64,000 nt of DNA from Candidatus Woesearchaeota archaeon (GTDB lineage Archaea > Nanobdellota > Nanobdellia > SCGC-AAA011-G17 > JACPIM01). The notes under the pieces are model-generated. The model had not been told where the DNA came from. It saw only the letters and a list, made by a program, of their open reading frames with translations, and searched no databases. Both the position numbers and the translations under genes were made by a program. Position 1 is the stretch's first letter, and each line of letters starts with the position of its first letter. Where the stretch lies: the NCBI GenBank assembly GCA_016188045.1, contig JACPIM010000006.1, positions 26,137 to 90,136 on the forward strand. The letters are read 5' to 3'. Shown here piece after piece: positions 667 to 50,594 of this stretch.

Positions 667-738
667 CCTTTATAAATAATCTAATTTTAGGAAGATGATA
701 AGAAACGTAGTTTATTATATTTAGGAGGTATTTTATAC

Positions 739-3484
739 GTGATTACAAAACTAAAAAAAATAGACAATATAGAAAAAGCTCAGCCAGAAATTAACATTGG
801 TATGGTTGGACAATAAGTAAGCAAAAGCTTCTTAAGCCAAAGACGTAGACCATGGTAAATGTCTGGCAGCAGATGAAAAAATATTAATAAATAACAGATT
901 AATAGATGGTAGTGAATTAATCCAAAAAGCAAAAACCAATGGAAAATTAGTTTGGAAAAAAGATAATGAAGAGTTATATGATATAAAAGACCTTTATACA
1001 TACTCGTTAGATAGAGAATTTAAAATAAAAAGAACAAAAGCAAAATTATTCTTGCAAAAATATAATGGTAGATTATTAGAAATAACGACCGAGGGCGGAA
1101 GGCAGATTAAATTAACAAAGAACCATCCACTATTAAAAAATAATTTGGAGTGGATTCCTTCTTATAAATTAAAAAAAGGAGACAAAATAGCCATATCTAA
1201 TATAAGAGTGCCTAGCAAAAAGATAAAGTTCTGTGATTGGGAGCAGAAATTAAAAAAGAAGTGGTATTTTTTAACATATACAGAGTATATAAATCTAAAA
1301 AAAATAACCAATAATTTTGCAGATTTCTCTAAATGTTCAGCAAAAGATTTTAATGATTTAAGAATATTAATTAATTTAAGATATAAAGAAATAGCAAAAA
1401 ATACAAAGTTTTCATATTCTTGGGTTACTAAGATATTAAGGCAGGAGAAGAAACTAACCACAAAGCTCATTAATAGGCTAAACAATTATTTTAAAAAAAT
1501 AGATAAGAATAAATTTAAAATAGAAAAAAATGAAATAGTAGTTCAAACAGAAAAACATCCAGAAAGAGTATCTTGTAGATTTAAGGATACAAAAATAGAT
1601 GTAGACGTAGTAAAATGGTTTTCTCTATTACATGCAGAAGGCTACGCAAGAGATAAAGGGTTAGTGGTTGTTCAAAAAAATTACCCTCAAATTTTAAAAG
1701 AATTTATAAAGATATCAGAAGAAAAATTCGGAATTAAGTTTGGTAAAATTTCAAAAGACAAAAATAATGTTACTAGATTTGAGGTATATTCATACCCATT
1801 TATTGACTATTTGAAATATAAATTTAATCTAAAACTAGGTCCATCCAAAGAATCAACAATATGCAACTGGGTTTTATCATTAAACAAAGCTAGTCAAGCC
1901 GTATTCTTAAAATATTTTTTTGGCACAGAAGGTTCTGTTAACGAAAGGGGGAATCAAATACGGTTATGTCAAGTAAATAAAACCAATCTAAATATCCTTT
2001 CTGTTTTATTAAATAATTTTAGTATAAATCATAGATTTCATAATTTGATAAGAAAAAATAAGAAGAATATAGAGTATTACGTAACTATTTCGGGCAAAGA
2101 TAATTTTTATAAATTTACTAAAGAAATTGGTTTTTTTGATAAAGAAAAAGAAATAAAAGTTAAGAAATACCTAAAAAAACTAGGAAATAAACTATTTTTA
2201 ACTAAGTTCGATAATAAATATAAGAATATAACGTTCGATAAAATTAGAAATATAAAGAAGATTAACTATAATGATTATTTAGTTGACCTAGTAGTGCCAA
2301 AATATCATAATTTTTTTGCAGGTTACGGTGGTATACTGTGTCACAATACTACTCTTTTATATGCCCTTACTGGTCGTTGGACAGATACCCACTCAGAAGA
2401 AATCAAAAGGGGTATTACAATCAGATTAGGCTACGCAGACGCCATTATCTATAAAGATAAAAATATTTTCACAAATAAAAAAACAAAAACATCAAAACCA
2501 GTAAGAAAAGTTTCTTTTGTAGATGCTCCAGGACACGAATCTTTAATGGCTACGATGTTGGCAGGTTCAGCAATAATGGATGCAGCTATTTTATTGGTTG
2601 CAGCCAACGAAACTTGCCCTCAACCACAGACTAAAGAACACCTAATGGCTTTGGAGATTATAGGTGTTAAAAACATAATCATAGTTCAAAATAAAATAGA
2701 TTTAGTAACAGAAGAGCAAGCTAAAAAAAATTATGAGGAGATTAAAAATTTCATTAAAGGAACAATAGCGGAAAATTCTCAAATAATCCCAATTTCAGCA
2801 CAGCATAATGTTAACATAGATGTTTTATTAGAAATGATTGCTAATATCCCAACGCCAAAAAGAGATCCTTTAAAACCGCCATTAATGTTTATAGCAAGAA
2901 GCTTTGATATTAATAAGCCGGGACAAGAAGTAGAAGCTTTAGTTGGTGGTGTTCTAGGGGGTTCATTAAAGCAAGGTAAGCTAAAAGTTAATGACGAAAT
3001 TGAAATTCGTCCAGGCATAAAAGAGATAAGTCATGGAAAAGTTAAATGGGTTCCATTAAGAACAAAAATAGCTGACTTAAAGACCGGTGGTTTGTCAGTA
3101 AAAGAAGTTCAGCCCGGAGGTTCAATAGGATTGTTAACAGAACTAGATCCATCTTTAGTTAAATCAGATTCTTTATCAGGTAATATATTGGGTTATCCAG
3201 ATAATTTGCCAGAAGTTTATTATGAATTAAATTTAAAATCTCATTTATTAGACAGAGTTATAGGAACAAAAGAAGAACTTAAAGTAGAGCCAATAAAAAA
3301 AGCAGAATCTTTGTTATTAAACGTAAACTCAACAACAACCGTAGGTGTAGTAACGGAATTAAAAAAAGATCATTTCCATGCAATATTAAAATTGCCAATC
3401 TGTGCTTCAAAAACAGATAGAATTACCATTTCTAGGATTTTGGGCGGAAGATTTAGATTAATTGGTTATGCTGAAATAGTATAA
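739..3484 (+). CDS. eif2g: translation initiation factor aIF2 gamma subunit, interrupted by a 31-nt intervening sequence and a 496-aa intein
   Basis: Frame 1 encodes VITKLKKIDNIEKAQPEINIGMVG from GTG 739, with the SD-like AGGAGGT at 723-729. After a 31-nt insert, frame 2 continues HVDHGK followed by C, the intein start. After HN/T at 2347/2348 it continues TLLYALTGRWTDTHSEEIKRGITIRLGYADA...DAPGHE...NKIDL, a canonical aIF2-gamma/EF-Tu-like GTPase. The mature protein would be about 408 aa. The listed ORF start at 1052 is an internal Met of the intein. Confidence 0.75.
813..843 (+). other. 31-nt intervening sequence splitting the His codon of the GHVDHGK P-loop (putative mRNA intron or recoding site)
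   Basis: Removing 813..843 (equivalently 812..842) joins gga ca|c gta gac cat ggt aaa into MVGHVDHGK. The insert contains in-frame stops (taa, tag) and the palindromes AAGCTT and CTTAAG. Confidence 0.5.
860..2347 (+). other. intein in aIF2-gamma with a LAGLIDADG-type homing endonuclease domain
   Basis: Starts Cys (CLAADEKILINNRLIDGSEL, Hint block A) immediately after GHVDHGK. Central LLHAEGYARDKG and KYFFGTEGSV motifs match LAGLIDADG. Ends VPKYHNFFAGYGGILCHN followed by Thr(+1). Confidence 0.7.
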
Positions 3485-3520: not shown

Positions 3521-3916
3521 ATGAGAAAAGAAATAGAAAATTGGTGGAAACAGGCAGAGGCAGACCTTAACTCAGCAAAGAATAGTTTCAATAGTAAGGA
3601 CTATTATGTCTGTGCATTTTTATGTCAGCAGGCAGTTGAAAAGGCGCTAAAGGCTTTACTTTTTAAGAAAGGATTTGAATTAATAAAAACACATGATTTA
3701 GTTCTATTAGCAAAAAAAATAAATGCACCGGATAATATTATTCAGTTATGTAAGATTCTAACGCCAGTTTATATTGAAACTAGATATCCTAACATTGATC
3801 AAGACGGATTTAAAAAATTTACCAAAGAAGAGACCAAAGAAGAGACCAAAGAAGAGACCAAAGAAGATATTAAGACTGCAGAGGAGATTATAAAATGGAC
3901 AAAAAAAAATCTATAA
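3521..3916 (+). CDS. HEPN domain protein (COG2250-type, TRYPN motif) with a C-terminal KEET tandem repeat
   Basis: QQAVEKALKALL and IETRYPN motifs are typical of the HEPN partner in HEPN/MNT pairs. The gene overlaps the downstream MNT gene. Confidence 0.6.
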   Translation: MRKEIENWWKQAEADLNSAKNSFNSKDYYVCAFLCQQAVEKALKALLFKKGFELIKTHDLVLLAKKINAPDNIIQLCKILTPVYIETRYPNIDQDGFKKFTKEETKEETKEETKEDIKTAEEIIKWTKKNL

Positions 3917-4212
3917 TAAATCAACTTAGAGAATTTAAATTAAAAACCAGCCATGAATTGCCTATAAAGAATATGTATCTATTTGGATCAAGAGCAAGGG
4001 GGAAGGCACATAGATGGAGTGATGTAGATTTGATAATAGTTTCAAAAAAGTTTAAAAAACTAACCTTTAGAAAGAGGGTTACAAAAATGTATGATTACTG
4101 GTATTTGGACTATCCAGTAGATTTTCTTTGTTACACTCCAGAAGAATTTGAAAGAAAAAAGAAAGAATATGGAATTGTAAAACAAGCGGTTAAAGAGGGT
4201 ATTGAGTTATAA
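3895..4212 (+). CDS. minimal nucleotidyltransferase (MNT), partner of the HEPN protein
   Basis: LFGSRARGKAHRWSDVDLIIV matches the Pol-beta NTase GSx9-13DxD motif. It overlaps the HEPN gene by 22 nt. Confidence 0.65.
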   Translation: MDKKKSIINQLREFKLKTSHELPIKNMYLFGSRARGKAHRWSDVDLIIVSKKFKKLTFRKRVTKMYDYWYLDYPVDFLCYTPEEFERKKKEYGIVKQAVKEGIEL

Positions 4213-13498: not shown

Positions 13499-16400
13499 TC
13501 AACCGTTTTTCATAACCCTAGAAACACTAGCAATTTTATCCCCTTCTTTTAATCTCATTATTATAACACCCTGGCTGTTTCTCCCAACTTTAGATATATT
13601 ATTTACCTCAGTTCTTATTATCTGTCCTTTAACAGTTATACACATTATTTCATCGTAATCTTTCACAGTTTTAATTCCAACAACTTTTCCATTTTTCTCA
13701 GTTACATTAATATTCTTAACCCCAGAACCACCTCTTTTAATTAATCTATATTCACCCATACTAGTTCTTTTACCATATCCATTCTCAGTAACAGTTAGCA
13801 AATCTCCATCTTCTAAAGCAACCTCCATTCCAATAACCCCATCATCTCTTAATCTAATTCCTCTTACCCCAGTTGCATTTCTTCCCATTACTCTAACATC
13901 TTCCTCATTAAACTTGACAGCTTGCCCGTTTTTAGTTCCAATTATAAAATTTAGATACCCAGGAGTTAATCTAACTTGAACTACTTCATCATTATCATTA
14001 AGATTAATTGCATTTATCCCGCCTTTTCTAGGATTGCTATACTCTGAAAGCAAACTTTTTTTCAAAATTCCTTTTTTAGTAACAAAAATTAAAGAGTGTT
14101 TGTCATCAAATTCTTTTATAGGCAAGACAGCACTTACTTTTTCATTTTCTCCTAAATGCAATAGATTAATCAAAGCCCCGCCTTTTGCATATCTTGAAGC
14201 TTCAGGAATTTCGTAAGCCTTTAGCCAATGAACTCTCCCTTTATTAGTAAAAAACAACAATTGACTTAGATTGCTTGTAATAAATAATTCTTGAACCACA
14301 TCTTCTTCTTTAGTCGTAGTAGCTCTAATACCAGTTCCGCCTCTTCCTTGGCTTCTATAAAGTTCTAAAGAAGTTTGTTTTGCATATCCAGAAGAAGTAA
14401 TAGTCACAACAATATCTTCTTCATTTATCAAATCCTCATTAGTTACAACTTCCTCAATTTGATTTGATATTAATGTTTTTCTTTCATCTCCATATTCATT
14501 CTTGATTTCACTTAATTCGCTTTTTATTATTCCGAATATTTTTCCAATATCAGCTAAAATATTTTTCAATTCTTCTATCAGTATTAACAAATGTTCATAT
14601 TCTTCTTGTATTTTTCTGGTTTCTAAGGAAGTCAATCTTTGTAATCTCATCTCCAAAATAGCATTAGCCTGTATTTCTGTTAGCTCAAATCTCTGAACTA
14701 ATCCCATTCTCGCAACATCAACACTTTCGCTTCTTTTTATTAATTGAACAACAGGATCAATATTACTTAGTGCGATTCTTAAACCTTGCAATATATGTGC
14801 TCTTTTTTCAGCTTTATCTAATTCAAATTTGGTTCTTCTGATAACAACCGTTTTTCTATGAACAATAAATTCCTTAATTAATCCCTTTAAGTCTAAAACT
14901 TTAGGTTCATTGTTTACTAAAGCCAAATTAATAACACCAAACGTAGTTTGTAAAGAACTGAGTTTATACAGTTGGCTTAATATCAATTCACCATCAAAAT
15001 TTTTCTTTAATTCAATTACAATCCTCATTCCCTTTCTGTCGCTTTCATCTCTTATATCTGAAATACCTTCAATTCTTTTATCATGAACTAACTGAGCTAT
15101 TCCCTCAATCAATAATGATTTATTTACCATATAAGGAATTTCTGTTATGATTATCTTATCTTCCATAACTTCTGCCTTGGCTCTTACAGTTAGTTTTCCC
15201 CTTCCGCTTTCATAAGCGCTTTTAATTCCATTTTCTCCTAAAATAATACCGCCAGTAGGAAAATCAGGTCCTTTAATGAATTTCATTAACTCTAAACTAT
15301 TGCATTCAGGATGATCTATTGCAAAAATAATAGCATCACAAACTTCTCTGATATTATGCGGTGGAATATTAGTAGCCATTCCAACAGCAATACCACTAGA
15401 TCCGTTAATTAATAAATTTGGTAATTTACTTGGTAATACGGTTGGTTCTTTTTCACTATTGTCAAAATTATTCACCAAATCAACTGTATCTTTATCAATA
15501 TCAATTAAGATTTCTTCAGCCATTTTGCTTAATTTGGCCTCTGTGTATCTGTATGCAGCAGCAGCGTCTCCATCTACGGAATTATGTACAAAAACACCGC
15601 AATCTAAAAGAAAATTATGATTTTCATTAACTGTGATATCATACACATCTTCTATGTAATCTAAAAATTTAATGCTTACAACATAGTGATTGTATTCTTT
15701 AGCCAATACAACCATTTCATTAATATTTTTAAAGTATCTTATGACATTGTTAAATCTTGGAAAACAATTATTTGTTCTAAATTTATTATAATTTTCTTCG
15801 TTTATATTATCTTCACCAAGAGTAGTAATTAGCCTGTTAACATAATACAGTATTTTGTTCTTTATTATACTTTTTTTATAATTATCATTTTTCCAGTTCA
15901 TCTTATGGGCCATAGCGGCTTTTTGTGCAATATCTTTCATAAAATTTGGTTTATTTTTTAATCTTAACAAATTACTCTTTCTAATGCCGCCTATAACTTT
16001 TTTCCTGAAATTTTCATTGGCCCACAATTTCTTCATTTTTTCGATTTGTAGTTTTTTATACTCTTCATTTTGCCAAGCCTTTTTAGCCATTTCACTTAAA
16101 TGATTATGATTTTCATTAATGAACTTCAATCTGTAATCATTTTCTTTCCAAAGTTTTTTGCTTCTTTCAGAAATCAATTTACGTGCTTCTGAATTATTTC
16201 TATAGAACTCTTTAATGCTCTGTGCTCTTTTTTGTATGACTTCAGGATGTTCTAAAATATTTTTTTTTTGTTTTTCAGATATCTTATTTTTTATTTCTGG
16301 TTTATTTAGTGCCCTTTTGATGCTTTTAATTATAGAATCTCTTTTTTTCTTATCACTCCACATTTTTTTAGAAAATTCTGACATGCATTTTCTTCTTTCA

Positions 16401-17500
16401 GGATGTTTATTATAATTTTCTTTAATTTTATCTGAAAGTTTATGCCTTAATTCTGGATTTTTCCAAAGTTCTTTTCTTTTTTGAGAAGATTTTTTTATAA
16501 AGTTAAGATCTTTGTTTCTTTCAATAAGCCTTTTTCTTAATTTTTCTATATGTTCCGGGTTATTTTTATAGAAGTTTTTAACACCTGCCCTTTGTTTTAA
16601 TCTAAAACCCAAACCCTTCCAATTTTCTTTTATTTGAGTGTTGTGAATTTTTGTATGATCATTCCAACTTAGTCTCTTTAAATTATCTGGACTATTATCG
16701 AGCTTATTAAAATTAACATGGTGTTTTACAGGCCCATCGTTTATAGAATAAAGGCCCCTTTCTAAATTATAGGCATCAGCAATTTCATGGACAAAAAAAT
16801 ATCTATCTTCTTTGTTATCCTTTATCATCAAATAATCTTTTAATTCAGTATTGCCCCTTATCGGACTAAGTTTAAAGTAACCTGGCATTAAACTATCATC
16901 TGGGGTTAAATATCTCGCTTCTTTATATTTTAAATTTTTTAATAAAAATCTGTGATCTGGTGTACATCTTATTATCTCGCCGCCATCTAATGTTATCTCA
17001 ACTATTTCTGAATCTTTCTTTGTTAATCTTGGATTCTTAGCTTCCCCAACTACAATTTTACCATCTTTATTAATAGAATAAACATAAAATATTTCATCTT
17101 TTTTATAAAGTTCACAAAGTTCTTTAAAACTTTTAGAAGTTCCATCTAATAATTTAATTTTTGTATCCCCTGTAAAACAACCAAAATTTCCCTGTCCTTT
17201 AACTAAAGGATATCTTAATGAAAAATTCTGAGCCATTCTGACTAAAGCATCATAAACAGACATATCGCCGTGGGGATGAAATTTTGCTAGAACAGTCCCA
17301 ACGACATTTGCACTTTTCTTAAATGCTTTATTATAATCTAAACCTAATTGTTTCATAGCATAAAGAACTCTCCTATGAACTGGTTTTAATCCATCTCTGA
17401 CATCAGGAATAGCTCTTGCTACAATAACACTCATAGCATAGTCCATATAGGACTGCTTCATCTCATCTTCAATTAGTCTTTCTTGAATTTCTTCTGGCAT
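13499..17500 (-). CDS. gyrA: DNA gyrase subunit A, containing a 533-aa intein
   Basis: N-extein ...[33 protein letters not shown] | C-extein [17 protein letters not shown]..., then GyrA-box-like repeats to the C-terminus. The total of 1333 aa corresponds to about 800 aa of GyrA plus the intein. Confidence 0.85.
13509..13560. repeat. gyrA 3'-terminal coding sequence that is duplicated at 12056..12108 (attR-like)
   Basis: See the alignment with 12056..12108. Lies within the last about 20 codons of gyrA. Confidence 0.6.
15581..17179 (-). other. GyrA intein (gyrA-a site) with an HNH endonuclease motif and an array of about 12 basic 25-aa repeats
   Basis: Begins [13 protein letters not shown] after GNFG and ends CGVFVHN before SVDGD. 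HNH-like [27 protein letters not shown]. Repeats of the type K..W.NPE...K.S.K.KE. Confidence 0.7.
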
Positions 17501-18196: not shown

Positions 18197-20131
<1,935 letters not shown>

Positions 20132-30342: not shown

Positions 30343-30627
30343 CTAAATAAAATTTTTTTTGCTAATTTCAATTATATATCTGGCTTTTTTTTTGGGTATA
30401 GCAATCATAAAGGGTTTTAAATTTACTCTTTCATCCACAATTTCTTTTTTTTCATTTAACCAATATACATCAATAGGATAAAAAACAAAAAACATATGTA
30501 TCATAGCACCAATTCTTGTTTCTTTACATAAATCAAATATTAGGTTTCTTTTTTTAGAAAACATTAATCCTCTGAATTTTTTAAAAAAACCAGTGCACTC
30601 TTCCAAATTTTTAAAAGAAATGTTCAT
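30343..30627 (-). CDS. DUF192 (COG1430) family protein
   Basis: FVFYPIDVYWLNEKKEIVD resembles DUF192. Confidence 0.45.
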   Translation of the reverse strand: MNISFKNLEECTGFFKKFRGLMFSKKRNLIFDLCKETRIGAMIHMFFVFYPIDVYWLNEKKEIVDERVNLKPFMIAIPKKKARYIIEISKKNFI

Positions 30628-30630
30628 TTT

Positions 30631-30897
30631 TTAGAACCTATATTTATGACCAAAAACTATTTTTTCCAAGTATAATTCATTTAAATTTTCATCATAAGAA
30701 TAAATAATCCTTAATGTTCCAATCCAAAGTCTACAGCTTCCAGATAAATCATAATGAAGATACTTATATCTTATTGGATTTTTAGCAACCTCTTCAACTT
30801 TTTTCTTAATCCTTTCTTGTATGAATAGATCTAGCTTCTTGAAATCTTTTTCAAACTCTTTAGTAGGTAGAATTTTATAGGGCATTCCAATCAGCAA
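30631..30897 (-). CDS. RelE/ParE-family toxin (type II TA)
   Basis: KILPTKEFEKDFKKLD ... YRLWIGTLRIIYSYDEN..LYLEKIVFGHKYRF has a RelE-like fold signature. Overlaps the upstream small antitoxin ORF. Confidence 0.55.
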   Translation of the reverse strand: MLIGMPYKILPTKEFEKDFKKLDLFIQERIKKKVEEVAKNPIRYKYLHYDLSGSCRLWIGTLRIIYSYDENLNELYLEKIVFGHKYRF

Positions 30898-33712: not shown

Positions 33713-33979
33713 ATGGCAAAATCAAATACTCTAAGTTTCACAGTACCAGATGAATTAAAGCTTAAATTAGATGTAATCACTAAAATAGGTTATTATGATT
33801 CAATGTCAGAATTCTTAAGAGATGCAATTAGAACACTATTATCTCAAAATAAGGATTTAAGGATTTCTATAGCATATCAATTGTTTAAAGATAAAAAAAT
33901 AGGCCTTGGAAAAGCATCTGAAATAATAGGCGAAAACATAAAGGAAACTAAGGAATTATTTGAAAAAAGAGAAATTTAA
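33713..33979 (+). CDS. ribbon-helix-helix (CopG-like) protein
   Basis: LSFTVPDELKLKLD ... YDSMSEFLRDAIRTLL resembles an RHH antitoxin/regulator. Confidence 0.55.
   Translation: MAKSNTLSFTVPDELKLKLDVITKIGYYDSMSEFLRDAIRTLLSQNKDLRISIAYQLFKDKKIGLGKASEIIGENIKETKELFEKREI
33927..33979. repeat. 3' end of the RHH gene, duplicated at 35041..35092 (about 90% identical)
   Basis: TAGGCGAAAACATAAAGGAAACTAAGGAATTATTTGAAAAAAGAGAAAT versus TAGGCGAAAATATAAAAGAAACTAAGGAACTATTTAAAAAAAGAGACAT. Confidence 0.6.
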
Positions 33980-34045
33980 CTGTGGTTACATAAAGAACCA
34001 TATGGTAACCAAAAAGTTTATATAGTAATTTAAGTTACCATAATT

Positions 34046-34648
34046 ATGGAAAAAATAGAAAAAACCATCAAACCAAAAATAGAAAAATTAGAACTAAATG
34101 AAGCGTATATAAAAGTAATTTATTGGTTTTTTTCCTTTCCAACAAGGTCAATAAGTCTATCAGAACTCGCTAAAGAACTTAAGATATCTAAAAGAAGAGC
34201 AAGTATTATAGTATCCTCTCTGATATCTGAAGGATTCTTAATAAAAGAGGAGATAGGCAGAAGTTGGAGACTCTCTTGTAATCAGCACCACATTTATAAT
34301 TATACAAGGAAAATTAGTTATAATCTTAGCTTAGTTTATAGTTTATTATATGAACTTAAACTGATCGATGAAATTTATAAGATTAGTGGTCAACCAAAAG
34401 CGGTAATTTTATTTGGAAGTTATAGAAAGGGAGATGATATAGATAAAAGCGACTTAGACCTCGCTGTTGAAGTTATCAATGATGAAGAAATAAAGATAAT
34501 TAATCTTGGGAAAATACCAGAATTAGGTTACAGGAAAAATATTCCGGTCAACCTGCATATTTTTTCTAGAAAAAAAATTGATTTAAACCTATTCAATAAT
34601 GTGGCTAATGGTATTGTGTTAGAGGGATTTTTAGAGGTAAAAAAATGA
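34046..34648 (+). CDS. wHTH-nucleotidyltransferase fusion protein
   Basis: N-terminal wHTH (LSELAKELKISKRRASIIVSSLISEGFL) and the NTase motif ILFGSYRKGDDIDKSDLDLAVEV. Confidence 0.55.
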   Translation: MEKIEKTIKPKIEKLELNEAYIKVIYWFFSFPTRSISLSELAKELKISKRRASIIVSSLISEGFLIKEEIGRSWRLSCNQHHIYNYTRKISYNLSLVYSLLYELKLIDEIYKISGQPKAVILFGSYRKGDDIDKSDLDLAVEVINDEEIKIINLGKIPELGYRKNIPVNLHIFSRKKIDLNLFNNVANGIVLEGFLEVKK

Positions 34649-35043
34649 GATACAAGAGACCAGATAAAAAAAATTCTTTAAGTCTTGTAGAGGCTTCAAA
34701 AAAAGAAATAAATTTTGCACTTTCTTTAGAGGTCAATGAACAATCAGGTCCAACAATTATAAGAAATATTTATGAAAGTTTTAGGATGTTAGGGGATGCA
34801 CTACTTATAAATCAAGGCATTGAATCAAAGGACCATGTAGAATGTATAAACGCCCTTTTAAAATTGAAAGTTAATACAACAAGGCCAATAAATCTTATTA
34901 ATAATCTAAGGATACTTAGGCATAATATAAATTATTATGGTTATAGGCCGAGATTGGAAGAAGTTCAAGAAGCTATTTCTATTGCTAAAACCTGTTTTAT
35001 CCAAATTTTTAATGAAGTATGTAAAATAATAAAAACCAAATAG
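34645..35043 (+). CDS. HEPN-like protein, partner of the NTase
   Basis: An alpha-helical 132-aa protein with RILRHNINYYGY resembling the HEPN R-x(n)-H..Y motif. Overlaps the NTase stop. Confidence 0.4.
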   Translation: MRYKRPDKKNSLSLVEASKKEINFALSLEVNEQSGPTIIRNIYESFRMLGDALLINQGIESKDHVECINALLKLKVNTTRPINLINNLRILRHNINYYGYRPRLEEVQEAISIAKTCFIQIFNEVCKIIKTK

Positions 35044-49517: not shown

Positions 49518-49997
49518 TTAAACCTTTTTTCTCTCAAAATTTAAGGCTTTTTTAGCTTCTCCAGGAGTCATTCCCATAACTCTGCCAAAACTAGCCAAAT
49601 CTTTTGTAGATCTTAATTCATATCTATCTTTAGCCCCGCTTAAAATAACCATTTTAACTTTGTATTTCCTGCATAATGCAACATTTTGCATCATCTTTCC
49701 TAATATCACGCTTCTATTTTTGCTTTTTAAAACATCATTAAAATTAAATCCTATCACAATATCGTTTTTTCTGGCCAACTCACATAGCACTTGATTTAAT
49801 CCGGAATCTCTTGAATGCATAAAATCTTTAGTTCTTGTTTTTTCAGGGCTTAGAAATATATCAATTTTTTTATTTTCAACAATTTTCCTGTTTTTACCAT
49901 CATCGCCCCCAACTTCAATTTTAAAATCTTTAAAAGTATAAAATCTAGTAAAACCAAGCATTTCCCCATTATACTCAAAATCAATTATGTCTATCAT
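49518..49997 (-). CDS. RNase P protein component 3 (Rpp30)-like, short form
   Basis: VILSGAKDRYELRSTKDLASFGRVMGMTPGEAKKAL resembles the Rpp30 C-terminal half. Confidence 0.35.
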   Translation of the reverse strand: MIDIIDFEYNGEMLGFTRFYTFKDFKIEVGGDDGKNRKIVENKKIDIFLSPEKTRTKDFMHSRDSGLNQVLCELARKNDIVIGFNFNDVLKSKNRSVILGKMMQNVALCRKYKVKMVILSGAKDRYELRSTKDLASFGRVMGMTPGEAKKALNFERKKV

Positions 49998-50000
49998 TTG

Positions 50001-50354
50001 TTATAACCTTCTAATTCTAATTTTGCCTTCTGTTACTACAATAAAACTTGATGACAATCTATTTGATAATTGGCTAATAATTTTATAAACATATTTTTGC
50101 CTTTGCAAAGGTGAATCTTGTTTTAACCTTAATAAGATAACACCAGAAGATGGCTCCTTAAGACGAAAAATAAATTCACCAAAATCTTTATCGTTGGTTA
50201 TTAAAATCCTTTTTTTATTTTCTGCATATTTAATTACTTCCATATCAGAAGCCTTAGGCATAATATCGCCAACATAAACTGCATCATGTTTTCGATCTAA
50301 AAGAAAAAGTACTAATTTTTTACCAGCACTTTCATCTACAAGAAACTTATGCAT
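50001..50354 (-). CDS. DUF5615 (Mut7-C/PIN-like) toxin-type protein
   Basis: MHKFLVDESAG...ILITNDKDFG is the pattern of DUF5615, which partners with DUF433. Confidence 0.5.
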   Translation of the reverse strand: MHKFLVDESAGKKLVLFLLDRKHDAVYVGDIMPKASDMEVIKYAENKKRILITNDKDFGEFIFRLKEPSSGVILLRLKQDSPLQRQKYVYKIISQLSNRLSSSFIVVTEGKIRIRRL

Positions 50355-50360
50355 TTTTAA

Positions 50361-50594
50361 TTATGCAAGCGGAAAGACATCCTCTCCTTTAATCACATCA
50401 GCAACATAATCTAAAGCGGCTTTTATATCATCTTCTGTTAAGTTAGGATAATCCTCAAGTATTTCTTCTTTTGTCATGCCTTGTGCTAATAATCTTATAA
50501 TGGCATCAACAGGTATTCTTGTACCCTTTATTAAAGGTTTGCCTACCATAATTTCAGGATTAATAATAATTCTTTTATTTAATGCTTGTTCCAT
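50361..50594 (-). CDS. DUF433 antitoxin-type protein
   Basis: PEIMVGKPLIKGTRIPVDAIIRLLAQGMTKEEILEDYPNLTEDDIKAALDY matches the DUF433 signature. Confidence 0.6.
   Translation of the reverse strand: MEQALNKRIIINPEIMVGKPLIKGTRIPVDAIIRLLAQGMTKEEILEDYPNLTEDDIKAALDYVADVIKGEDVFPLA

Follow-up and report, generated by a model that had tools for sequence, protein, structure and literature searches.

A split aIF2-gamma gene in a Woesearchaeota genome

We analyzed a 64-kb stretch of Woesearchaeota DNA (referred to here as the window) containing the gene for the translation GTPase aIF2-gamma (Table 1). Samples containing this organism include, for example, run SRR12113424 and Hainich groundwater (ERZ1292623). 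The gene opens at GTG739, and frame 1 reads VITKLKKIDNIEKAQPEINIGMVGQ before meeting the stop codon TAA at 814-816. Frame 2 reads DVDHGK from position 842, followed by Cys 860, and is open to 3484. The initial annotation described a stop-containing insert of 31 nt that splits the His codon of the P-loop, and the sequence reads accordingly: excision of 812..842 rebuilds GGA C|AC GTA, encoding G-H-V-DHGK. Deletion of 813..843, the interval given originally, yields an identical product because A812 = A843. The expected spliced junction is ...GGUUGGAC|ACGUAGACC..., i.e. GGAC|ACGUAGACC, and the intronless P-loop DNA is GTTGGACACGTAGACCATGGTAAAACT.

With the 31 nt taken out, the locus encodes a 904-codon ORF (...NIGMVGHVDHGK, then a 496-aa intein opening with C and ending ...HN, then TTLLYALTG...) in which Pfam detected GTP_EFTU, GTP_EFTU_D2, eIF2_C, Intein_splicing and LAGLIDADG_3 domains. 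The downstream gene and its spliceable intein are thus intact, as was first claimed: the intein has C860 at position 1, a C-terminal His-Asn, Thr at +1, and splicing-domain blocks (Pfam). The N-terminus encoded by exon 1 is also kept in the close relatives L122 and L123.

Table 1. Features of the aIF2-gamma locus and of the RNA fold predicted around the insert (window coordinates).
Feature	Position	Strand	Details
Shine-Dalgarno-like GGAGGT	723..729	+	9 nt 5' of GTG start; invariant in close relatives L122 and L123 (alignment)
Exon 1 of aIF2-gamma	739..811	+	GTG start, 24 codons (VITKLKKIDNIEKAQPEINIGMVG) plus C811, base 1 of the His codon
Outer exon-exon helix, 5' strand	798..805	+	MFE: 798-801 with 849-852, 802-804 with 844-846, G805 bulged
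Central BHB helix, exon strand UUGG	806..809	+	Pairs with 837-840; spans bases 2-3 of Val codon GUU and bases 1-2 of Gly codon GGA
5' splice-site loop A C | A A	810..813	+	Predicted cut 811|812, after second residue
Predicted 31-nt intron, AAUAAGUAAGCAAAAGCUUCUUAAGCCAAAG	812..842	+	Stops in two frames; homologous inserts in ~40 loci
Inner intron hairpin (UAAG-U-AAGC, loop AAAA, GCUUCUUA)	814..834	+	dG -5.5, z -5.2
Central BHB helix, intron strand CCAA	837..840	+	100% paired in 32 sequences; CCGA in L133
3' splice-site bulge A G | A, 3 nt	841..843	+	Predicted cut 842|843
Exon 2 start	843..859	+	AC finishing the His codon, then GUA GAC CAU GGU AAA (VDHGK)
496-aa intein with LAGLIDADG endonuclease domain	860..2347	+	Sits after GHVDHGK; Intein_splicing 1.6e-21, LAGLIDADG_3 8.3e-13
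C-extein of aIF2-gamma, 378 aa plus stop codon	2348..3484	+	

Gene callers begin the aIF2-gamma product either with MHGK... or past the intein Cys. NCBI annotates only a truncated product lacking the P-loop N-terminus (MBI2499163.1), as might be expected of a pseudogene or decaying copy in which the insert is merely disruptive. However, approximately 880 codons 3' of the insert are open, the complete intein among them, and aIF2-gamma is an essential, single-copy gene. A second intact copy, which the initial annotation considered a sign of pseudogenization, was looked for: the VDHGK P-loop occurs once in the window, and there is therefore no other intact aIF2-gamma within 64 kb. Moreover, the interruption is kept in ~40 divergent lineages with structure-preserving substitutions (see below), and gene decay is a very improbable explanation.

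Among ~70 window ORFs scanned with Pfam, aIF2-gamma was the only clearly split gene, with one further case merely odd, and EndA and RtcB genes were not found. ARAGORN detected no tRNAs within the 64 kb, and Rfam matches in the window were confined to LSU rRNA and RNase P, with none at the insert. The protein cluster of the gene (lengths 810, 873, 382, 382, 382 and 400 aa) lacked a junction-spanning member, and P0010, sought as a possible spliced or intronless product, was placed on no contig.

The insert folds into a relaxed bulge-helix-bulge motif

The minimum free energy (MFE) structure of positions 780-870 had a predicted stability of -27.2 kcal/mol (z = -4.1), with 0 of 200 shuffled sequences equally stable, and holds a central helix, a 3' bulge, a 5' loop, an inner hairpin and an outer exon helix. 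Folding this segment, a check proposed at the outset, hence recovered a relaxed bulge-helix-bulge (BHB) motif with cuts at the predicted junctions, and the TTGG/CCAA flank pairing picked out by eye in the initial annotation proved to be its central 4-bp helix. Cleavage of archaeal BHB motifs falls between the second and third residue of each bulge (PMC2738675). Applied to the window, this cut rule gives 811|812 and 842|843, exactly restoring the His codon and the reading frame.

The window copy is among the less canonical ones. Its 5' site faces A835 and G836 and is therefore a relaxed 4x2 internal loop, not a clean 3-nt bulge. Its outer helix, the 3' strand of which is formed by 844-852 of exon 2, contains either a bulged G805 or a G.G mismatch; G805 can alternatively pair with C844. 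Nevertheless, 812..842 has the make-up of a relaxed BHB; the full motif (hBHBh') is a 4-bp central helix with a bulge on either side, on opposite strands, and HBh', hBH and BHL are recognized relaxed forms. A generic BHB and ORF-fusion scan of the window returned >1,300 candidates, but missed 812..842 because two outer pairs were required.

In the transcript, the 4-bp central helix would form between exon UUGG (806-809) and intron CCAA (837-840). The 3' junction would then sit in a 3-nt bulge (AG|A) bounded by the exon-exon outer helix, and the 5' junction in a loop (AC|AA) bounded by the hairpin within the intron. At both junctions, the tRNA splicing endonuclease (EndA) would cleave behind the second residue, and an RtcB-type ligase would join ...GGA C to AC GUA..., so that the GHVDHGK P-loop regains its His codon. 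Removal of the intein, whose coding sequence lies 18 nt farther on, would follow at the protein level. EndA has been reported in DPANN archaea, including in a Woesearchaeota genome, and DPANN lineages carry an alpha4-type EndA with an L3 insert that is associated with more disrupted tRNA genes and accompanies many non-canonical tRNA introns (PMC5829648).

The insert could alternatively be removed from RNA by something other than EndA and RtcB, such as another endonuclease acting on the hairpin or another ligation route. The non-canonical 4x2 loop at the 5' site of the window copy, the weak 3' side of introns at a second site (described below) and the classical strictness of alpha4 EndAs (PMC5829648) would all suit such a route. 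Yet the geometry suits EndA: the two sites are in register around a 4-bp helix, each cut follows the second residue, and many relatives have 3-nt bulges. EndA is also known to accept the relaxed motifs HBh', hBH and BHL, and a different removal machinery is unlikely.

Inserts at the same codon are widespread in DPANN archaea

Comparison of orthologous loci, as recommended in the initial annotation, revealed inserts of 14-35 nt at the same aIF2-gamma codon in ~40 other DPANN loci, mostly of Woesearchaeota. Scans of metagenomes and genomes yielded 31 unique aIF2-gamma sequences interrupted at the His codon, by inserts of 14, 28, 29, 30, 31, 32, 33 and 35 nt that span all three frame classes. The cut rule restored QPE.NIG..G-H-VDHGK in 31/31 of these unique sequences, and works across ~40 loci, eight lengths, two sites and two genes. 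Carrier lineages are divergent (48-77% amino-acid identity), and the insert most likely belongs to a previously undescribed intron family present in dozens of Woesearchaeota genomes, as judged from sequence comparison.

Splice-site features were conserved among relatives. The 5' bulge was AC|A in 30/34 sequences and AC|U in 4/34, the 3' bulge was AG|A in 31/34, AA|A in 2/34 and UA|A in 1/34, and the insert's 3' end was always CCAAAG/CCGAAA. More canonical 5' sites were also present (3x0 in 5 relatives and 3x1 in 12), and the 14-nt intron of L100 takes the BHL form. All relatives have the inner hairpin, with differing stem sequences (mean z -3.4), and constraining the fold to a BHB cost 0-3.5 kcal/mol relative to the MFE in all of the sequences. 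For L056, the MFE structure contains a UGGA:UCCA helix with perfect 3-nt bulges; this candidate was rejected given that the resulting 28-nt excision breaks the frame, and the UUGG:CCAA register was preferred.

In a metagenome-assembled genome, misassembly or sequencing artefact is a possibility a priori, and the initial annotation called for it to be checked. However, run SRR12113424, assembled independently in Logan (L126), gives the identical sequence in this region. Inserts at this codon also recur in ~40 loci of unrelated samples, across JGI, ENA, NCBI and Logan assemblies, leaving artefact with a negligible probability.

The conserved position of the insert also bears on programmed translational bypassing or recoding, the fallback explanation of the initial annotation, by which the ribosome would read exon 1, skip the 31 nt and then continue, in the manner of phage T4 gene 60 or mitochondrial byp elements. 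In gene 60, a short stop-containing gap with a hairpin follows a GGA codon, and bypassing needs matched take-off and landing codons, with codons left intact. The insert resembles the gene 60 take-off site in having a stop codon shortly after the GGA Gly codon and a hairpin in the gap. It differs in that the His codon is split (C|AY) at the nucleotide level in all ~40 loci; a ribosome hopping from GGA would thus be unable to decode His, leaving the protein short of one GxxxxGK residue. Furthermore, a landing codon is absent, with no GGN triplet ahead of exon 2 in any insert, and compensatory changes between exon and intron (see below) fit a BHB, while a hop gives no cause to expect such geometry. 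Bypassing is accordingly a highly unlikely account of this locus.

Compensatory changes and codon constraint support the predicted helices

The outer helix was 87.9% paired across relatives. Its closing pair was G:C in 22 cases, A:U in 10, G:U in 2 and C.C in 2, and never A:C (Fisher p = 5e-7), and its second pair was pairable in 27/34 intron-bearing compared with 21/74 intronless genes (p = 9e-7), although these p-values overstate independence because the sequences are related. The closing positions were uncorrelated in the 74 intronless genes (p = 0.21), and on a rough NJ tree the pair switches state about 5 times. The Gly codon was GGA in 34/34 intron-bearing sequences, for which the search pattern allowed GGN, versus 23/74 intronless genes.

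Invariance of the central helix in 33/34 sequences derives from the search pattern, which demanded it, and evidence for covariation in this helix comes from L133 and the second-site introns. L133 was found by protein search, independently of the DNA pattern, and has a compensatory UCGG:CCGA helix in place of the UUGG:CCAA found elsewhere. Its unconstrained MFE structure is a near-textbook hBHBh' motif.

Given the motif and its geometry, the agreement between cuts and reading frame, conservation in many genomes and the compensatory changes, 812-842 is very probably an archaeal BHB-type intron in aIF2-gamma pre-mRNA, a reading that draws on sequence and folding models. We infer splicing itself, and EndA and RtcB as the enzymes responsible. 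The original proposal of removal by a tRNA-splicing-endonuclease-type mechanism is therefore strengthened by these comparisons.

A second intron site, the paralog aIF5B and linked endonucleases

A second intron site, GHVD|HGK, was identified 9 nt downstream of the first in L036, L122-125 and L132, including the organism's closest relatives. Introns at this site follow the same register as those at the first, with compensatory exchange of U:A for C:G (GUUG/CAAA versus GUCG/CGAA, helix UUG:CAA versus UCG:CGA). The same intron type occurs at the same codon of the paralog aIF5B in L096 and L116 (Pfam IF-2 confirmed), and L093 is a partial instance. Within one cluster of at least 90% identity, the window copy has a site-1 intron and intein, L122 a site-2 intron only, and L123-125 an endonuclease ORF and a site-2 intron.

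The initial annotation drew attention to an intron stacked on an intein-containing gene. Both are present here, but the pairing is not obligatory: the intein occurs in intronless genes (P0002/L121, P0004, P0005 and P0007), leading us to reject obligatory coupling, and the intron is mostly found without an intein. A LAGLIDADG endonuclease ORF lies directly upstream of many intron-bearing genes. It was seen only beside aIF2-gamma, where every such gene has an intron except L130/131, and was absent from the 74 intronless loci. Often this ORF runs in frame into exon 1, with the fusion ending at the stop codon of the intron. The window lacks an upstream LAGLIDADG ORF, and a BLAST comparison of this ORF with the window's intein gave no match.

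We tentatively suggest, as a possibility we hold to be the less probable one, that the P-loop mini-introns are the immunity half of a composite mobile element with a homing endonuclease. The LAGLIDADG endonuclease, encoded upstream of aIF2-gamma or, as in the window, inside the P-loop intein, would have as its target the invariant DNA that encodes the P-loop of translation GTPases. The host-spliced BHB micro-intron would split the DNA target, shielding its carrier, and would pass to naive alleles by co-conversion, in the manner of collaborative homing. For the in-frame fusions, unspliced RNA would give the endonuclease, and spliced RNA the initiation factor. If true, such an element would explain why two sites lie 9 nt apart, how the intron reached aIF5B and why turnover within the cluster is rapid. 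The association of the introns with LAGLIDADG ORFs and with an intein in one 30-bp hotspot makes it possible to test directly how archaeal introns arise and spread.

Comparison with known systems

In Archaea, cbf5 of Crenarchaeota is the only protein-coding gene with a confirmed BHB intron, and is the sole case cited in papers from 2018 and 2025. In our literature search, BHB introns were not reported for aIF2-gamma, for aIF5B or for any protein-coding gene of DPANN archaea, although most subscription journals were outside its coverage and an earlier mention is possible. The essential translation GTPase aIF2-gamma, together with its paralog aIF5B, would constitute a second host gene family for archaeal mRNA BHB introns, found in another superphylum (DPANN) and represented by dozens of variants. 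If true, EndA-dependent mRNA splicing would be more than a crenarchaeal oddity, and the natural variants offer a mutational series for what DPANN EndA accepts. The core marker gene aIF2-gamma is also mis-annotated in public genomes.

The LAGLIDADG ORF abutting intron-bearing aIF2-gamma in relatives recalls collaborative homing in cyanophage psbA, where the gene for the free-standing endonuclease F-CphI adjoins a conserved target gene split, at a conserved site, by an ORF-less group I intron lacking an endonuclease (PMC6083498). The psbA intron is self-splicing, whereas those described here are predicted to be host-spliced through a BHB, and the window is without the endonuclease ORF that in relatives is often fused to exon 1 and ended by the intron stop. 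HAC1/XBP1 likewise involves an mRNA intron that is cut at stem-loops by a site-specific endonuclease and whose removal shifts the reading frame. In this unconventional splicing, the exons are joined by the tRNA ligase RtcB (PMC8718801). There, the endonuclease is Ire1 rather than EndA, and splicing is part of a regulated eukaryotic stress response.

Archaeal tRNA and rRNA BHB introns, including the relaxed HBh', hBH and BHL forms, share the 4-bp helix with bulges, the inner hairpin and the exon outer helix, and the aIF2-gamma intron sizes are within the 11-175 nt range of tRNA introns (PMC2738675). The substrate differs in being an mRNA with a junction inside a codon, where the exonic helix strands are additionally under protein-coding constraint.

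[quoted passage not shown] Both introns are patchily distributed among relatives, which in cbf5 implies gain and loss (PMC2738675). Splicing of cbf5 was shown by cDNA, while the aIF2-gamma intron is known from DNA. The cbf5 host gene encodes a pseudouridine synthase in TACK archaea with a heterotetrameric EndA, whereas here the hosts are the translation GTPases aIF2-gamma and aIF5B of DPANN/Woesearchaeota, with two sites 9 nt apart, occurrence in a paralog, sizes down to 14 nt and frequent linkage to a LAGLIDADG ORF.

Interruption of aIF2-gamma within its P-loop

The aIF2-gamma gene of this AT-rich archaeon (30% GC in the window, where archaeal LSU rRNA and RNase P RNA are also present) is interrupted in its P-loop. 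Frame 1 runs from GTG 739 through VITKLKKIDNIEKAQPEINIGMVGQ to TAA 814-816, and frame 2 reads DVDHGK from 842, reaches Cys 860 and remains open as far as 3484. Joining 739-811 to 843-3484 yields a 904-codon ORF with the Pfam domains GTP_EFTU, GTP_EFTU_D2 and eIF2_C, together with Intein_splicing and LAGLIDADG_3. The initial annotation had described a 31-nt stop-containing insert splitting the His codon of an otherwise intact gene and intein, and had recovered GHVDHGK by deleting 813-843; the sequence reads as claimed, and this deletion equals that of 812-842 because A812 and A843 are the same base. Misassembly, which it had raised as a concern, does not explain the insert and is extremely unlikely, since an independent Logan assembly (run SRR12113424) matches 700-900 at every base. 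A second copy, which it had said would suggest a pseudogene, was also sought, and the 64 kb of the window hold no other VDHGK P-loop. Loss of function is itself implausible, and we give it little credence: the gene is essential, ~880 codons are kept open, and the same structured interruption recurs in lineages only 48-77% identical.

The NCBI counterpart, MBI2499163.1 (protein P0010, 'Candidatus Woesearchaeota archaeon'; 863-3484, 873 aa), starts at the codon after intein Cys1, and the deposited aIF2-gamma therefore has no P-loop N-terminus. Intein-less members of its protein cluster (at least 90% identity) are called by gene callers from MHGKTT..., and this marker gene is systematically mis-annotated in public records.

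Elsewhere in the window, gyrA is also intein-bearing (Pfam DNA_topoisoIV and Intein_splicing), and a DUF5680 ORF lies between gyrA and gyrB. The RNase P p30 ORF covers profile positions 96-212 of 214 only, with a DUF433/DUF5615 toxin-antitoxin-like pair directly upstream, at the position expected of the N-terminal half. Further toxin-antitoxin-like types around the locus comprise HEPN with nucleotidyltransferase, a ParE-like ORF, and RHH with nucleotidyltransferase.

Coordinates of the interrupted gene, its predicted fold and related features (window unless another locus is named)
Feature	Locus	Position	Strand	Remarks
Shine-Dalgarno-like GGAGGT box	window	723-729	+	ahead of GTG start 739
N-extein, 30 aa	window	5' part of joined ORF	+	ends GHVDHGK
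Intein, 496 aa	window	from Cys1 (860)	+	joined ORF; ends His-Asn, then Thr
C-extein, 378 aa	window	3' part of joined ORF, to 3484	+	
Central 4-bp helix	window	UUGG 806-809 : CCAA 837-840	+	predicted fold of 780-870
3' bulge, 3 nt	window	A841 G842 A843	+	predicted fold
Outer exon-exon helix	window	802-804:844-846 and 798-801:849-852	+	predicted fold
5' loop	window	A810 C811 A812 A813 facing A835 G836	+	predicted fold
Intron hairpin	window	814-834	+	predicted fold
Toxin-antitoxin-like pair	window	3521-4212	+	
gyrA	window	13499-17500	-	
gyrB	window	18197-20086		
Toxin-antitoxin-like pair	window	30343-30897	-	
Toxin-antitoxin-like pair	window	33713-35043	+	
RNase P p30 ORF	window	49518-50594	-	
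Site-2 intron region	L122	2512-2570		
Site-2 intron region	L123-L125	2458-2516		
Site-2 intron region	L036	2870-2930		
Site-2 intron region	L132	1785-1840		
Upstream LAGLIDADG-like ORF	L081	6663-8000		complete
Upstream LAGLIDADG-like ORF	L082, L091, L100, L108			complete
Upstream LAGLIDADG-like ORF	L089, L105			cut by contig end
Upstream LAGLIDADG-like ORF	L123-125	1067-2353		
Upstream LAGLIDADG-like ORF	L112, L127-L134			
Upstream LAGLIDADG-like ORF	L130	2001-3330		frameshifted

Predicted fold and route of removal

The 780-870 region folds at -27.2 kcal/mol, compared with -16.1 ± 2.7 in shuffles (z = -4.1). In bulge-helix-bulge (BHB) substrates, the endonuclease cleaves between residues 2 and 3 of each bulge (PMC2738675); applied to the window, this rule predicts cuts at 811/812 and 842/843, with 31 nt removed and GGA C joined to AC GUA. 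The TTGG/CCAA flank pairing noticed in the initial annotation is the central helix of this fold. The fold it had proposed to look for, a BHB or relaxed hBH motif with cleavage sites at the predicted junctions, is modelled here as a relaxed BHB, the 3' half being canonical and the 5' half loosened.

From sequence, the insert at 812-842 is very probably a BHB-type pre-mRNA intron. Its removal from the RNA by a route other than the tRNA splicing endonuclease EndA appears unlikely, as EndA substrates have this geometry. Programmed translational bypassing, by which ribosomes would skip the insert, is highly improbable and could not work, because the insert physically divides the His codon and there is no landing codon.

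Inserts at the same codon in related genes

A genome scan with the C-extein as query (one genome per species) returned 80 loci, the top matches, none above 67% identity, all coming from Woesearchaeota or Nanoarchaeia. GHVDHGK was uninterrupted in 74; three loci (L021, L037, L056) carried a 30-31-nt stop-containing insert positioned exactly as in the window, L036 a 30-nt insert three codons further downstream, and L004 the P-loop GHVDNGK. An Asn replacing the G1 motif's second His in this way is seen in some aIF2-gamma genes of Woesearchaeota (L004, ~3985; L127, 3405-3420), with the intron present or absent. Scanning metagenomes for the pattern TTGGNC, 15-45 nt, CCAANNAYGTNGAYCAYGGNAA returned 40 loci: ~34 were insert-bearing aIF2-gamma, three look like chance matches, and three (L093, a partial contig, with L096 and L116, whose identity Pfam IF-2 and GTP_EFTU_D4 confirm) were aIF5B genes in which a like insert (29-32 nt) splits the same P-loop His codon. 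L096, whose BHB is a perfect 3x0, comes from a GC-rich lineage that is clearly distinct.

After de-duplication, 31 unique site-1 aIF2-gamma sequences remained, window included, with inserts of 14, 28, 29, 30, 31, 32, 33 or 35 nt, and one cut rule restored QPE.NIG..G-H-VDHGK in all 31. These lengths fall in all three classes modulo 3; therefore, only nucleotide-precise removal with fixed borders serves every sequence. The ortholog comparison proposed in the initial annotation finds inserts at the same codon, whose predicted excision restores the frame. The shortest, a 14-nt mini-intron in L100 (reverse strand, 1691-1704; AUUAAAAACCAAAG), has no inner hairpin, takes a bulge-helix-loop form and approaches the smallest size known among archaeal introns.

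Evidence for selection on base pairing

The outer closing pair links base 1 of the exon-1 Val/Ile codon with base 3 of the exon-2 His codon. It is G:C in 22 intron-bearing sequences, A:U in 10, G:U in 2, C.C in 2 and A:C in 0 (Fisher p = 5e-7), whereas the same positions are uncorrelated in the 74 intronless genes (G/T 42, G/C 18, A/C 7, A/T 7; p = 0.21). On a rough NJ tree of C-exteins this pair changes state ~5 times, and intron-bearing genes are interspersed with intronless ones (12 parsimony changes). A second outer pair can form in 27/34 intron-bearing versus 21/74 intronless genes (p = 9e-7), and the Gly codon, source of the first residue of the bulge, reads GGA in 34/34 versus 23/74, although the search pattern permitted GGN.

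All sequences have an inner hairpin, with differing stem sequences (mean z = -3.4 versus shuffles), and the BHB-constrained fold lies 0-3.5 kcal/mol from the MFE in each; five sequences have a 3x0 5' loop and 12 a 3x1 loop, the others having larger ones. In the alignment of site-1 intron-bearing sequences, 87.9% of outer-helix cells and 100% of central-helix cells are paired, the central helix being imposed by the metagenome search pattern, and cells with two-sided changes exceed all 500 shuffles. L133 came instead from a protein search: its junctions (CUC GGA C / ... CCGAAA / AC) give a central helix UCGG:CCGA, a compensatory double change, and the MFE obtained without constraint comes close to a textbook hBHBh'. 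Together, these patterns are evidence that the predicted pairing of site-1 introns is under selection.

A second putative intron site and turnover among close relatives

In L122-L125, which hold the intein-less cluster members and are the window's closest relatives, the DNA reads ...ATG GTC GGC CAC GTC GAT, 34 nt with stops, then CAC GGC AAG; neither a site-1 intron nor an intein is present. This insert reads as an intron between Asp and His (GHVD/HGK), 9 nt downstream of the window site; a related 30-31-nt intron occupies site 2 in L036 and L132. In canonical register, site-2 introns would have a clean 3-nt 5' bulge (AU/A) that the inner helix closes directly, a central helix consisting of G.A, U:A, U:A or C:G, and G:C, and a loose 3' side. 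GUUG/CAAA in L036 and L132 versus GUCG/CGAA in L122-125 is a compensatory change.

Within the cluster of at least 90% identity, the window and L126 (the Logan assembly) have the site-1 intron and intein, L122 the site-2 intron alone, and L123-125 a LAGLIDADG-like ORF with the site-2 intron. Similarity between the intron cores of the window (UAAGCAAAAG) and L122 (UAAGCAAAAU), both short and AT-rich, hints at one intron relocated between sites rather than two origins. Downstream of aIF2-gamma, L123-125 carry a different gene, PBECR2-like.

A LAGLIDADG-like ORF upstream of intron-bearing genes

The exon-1 frame is open for 420-446 codons upstream in the five loci with complete ORFs, and in two more until the contig end. 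The encoded proteins, homologous from locus to locus with 37-63% identity, contain two LAGLIDADG-like motifs, FGKW.GD.CGG and AGL(I/F)EAEGS; the ORF is not present in the window, and BLAST found no similarity to the window intein. Members of the family (~400-470 aa) often run on in frame into exon 1 and have their stop codon within the intron. Among 31 cluster representatives from a protein search, Pfam LAGLIDADG_3 is on record for 2, and one is named 'LAGLIDADG family homing endonuclease' by NCBI; 16 end in ...NIG..G(H/Q)x and therefore terminate inside the site-1 intron, and one ends in ...GHVDNF, inside the site-2 intron.

The ORF was directly 5' of aIF2-gamma in every context retrieved. 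By tblastn, its domain matched only beside aIF2-gamma genes among all collected loci and was found in none of the 80 loci from the genome scan, 74 of which are intronless. The adjoining genes all have a site-1 or site-2 intron, except on the marine contig of L130/131, where the ORF is frameshifted, aIF2-gamma is intronless and the P-loop diverges in DNA and protein (GVCGHIDHGK), which may be an alternative escape from the endonuclease. A reverse-transcriptase gene lies near this locus.

Comparison with known systems

In the searchable literature, cbf5 is the one archaeal gene named as having a confirmed pre-mRNA BHB intron, other cases having been predicted (PMC2738675); the cbf5 work is also all that is cited in reviews and structural papers from 2018 and 2025. 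A search of the openly accessible literature turned up no report of introns in aIF2-gamma, in aIF5B or in protein-coding genes of DPANN. DPANN EndA is of the alpha4 type with an L3 insert, a type that goes along with more disrupted tRNA genes (PMC5829648). ARAGORN found no tRNA genes in the 64-kb window, which may reflect chance or intron-disrupted tRNAs that it missed. In collaborative homing, a free-standing endonuclease targets a site interrupted by an ORF-less intron (PMC6083498); the LAGLIDADG-like ORF, a putative endonuclease, likewise adjoins an intron-split aIF2-gamma, and by analogy we infer that the ORF-intron association resembles such a system.
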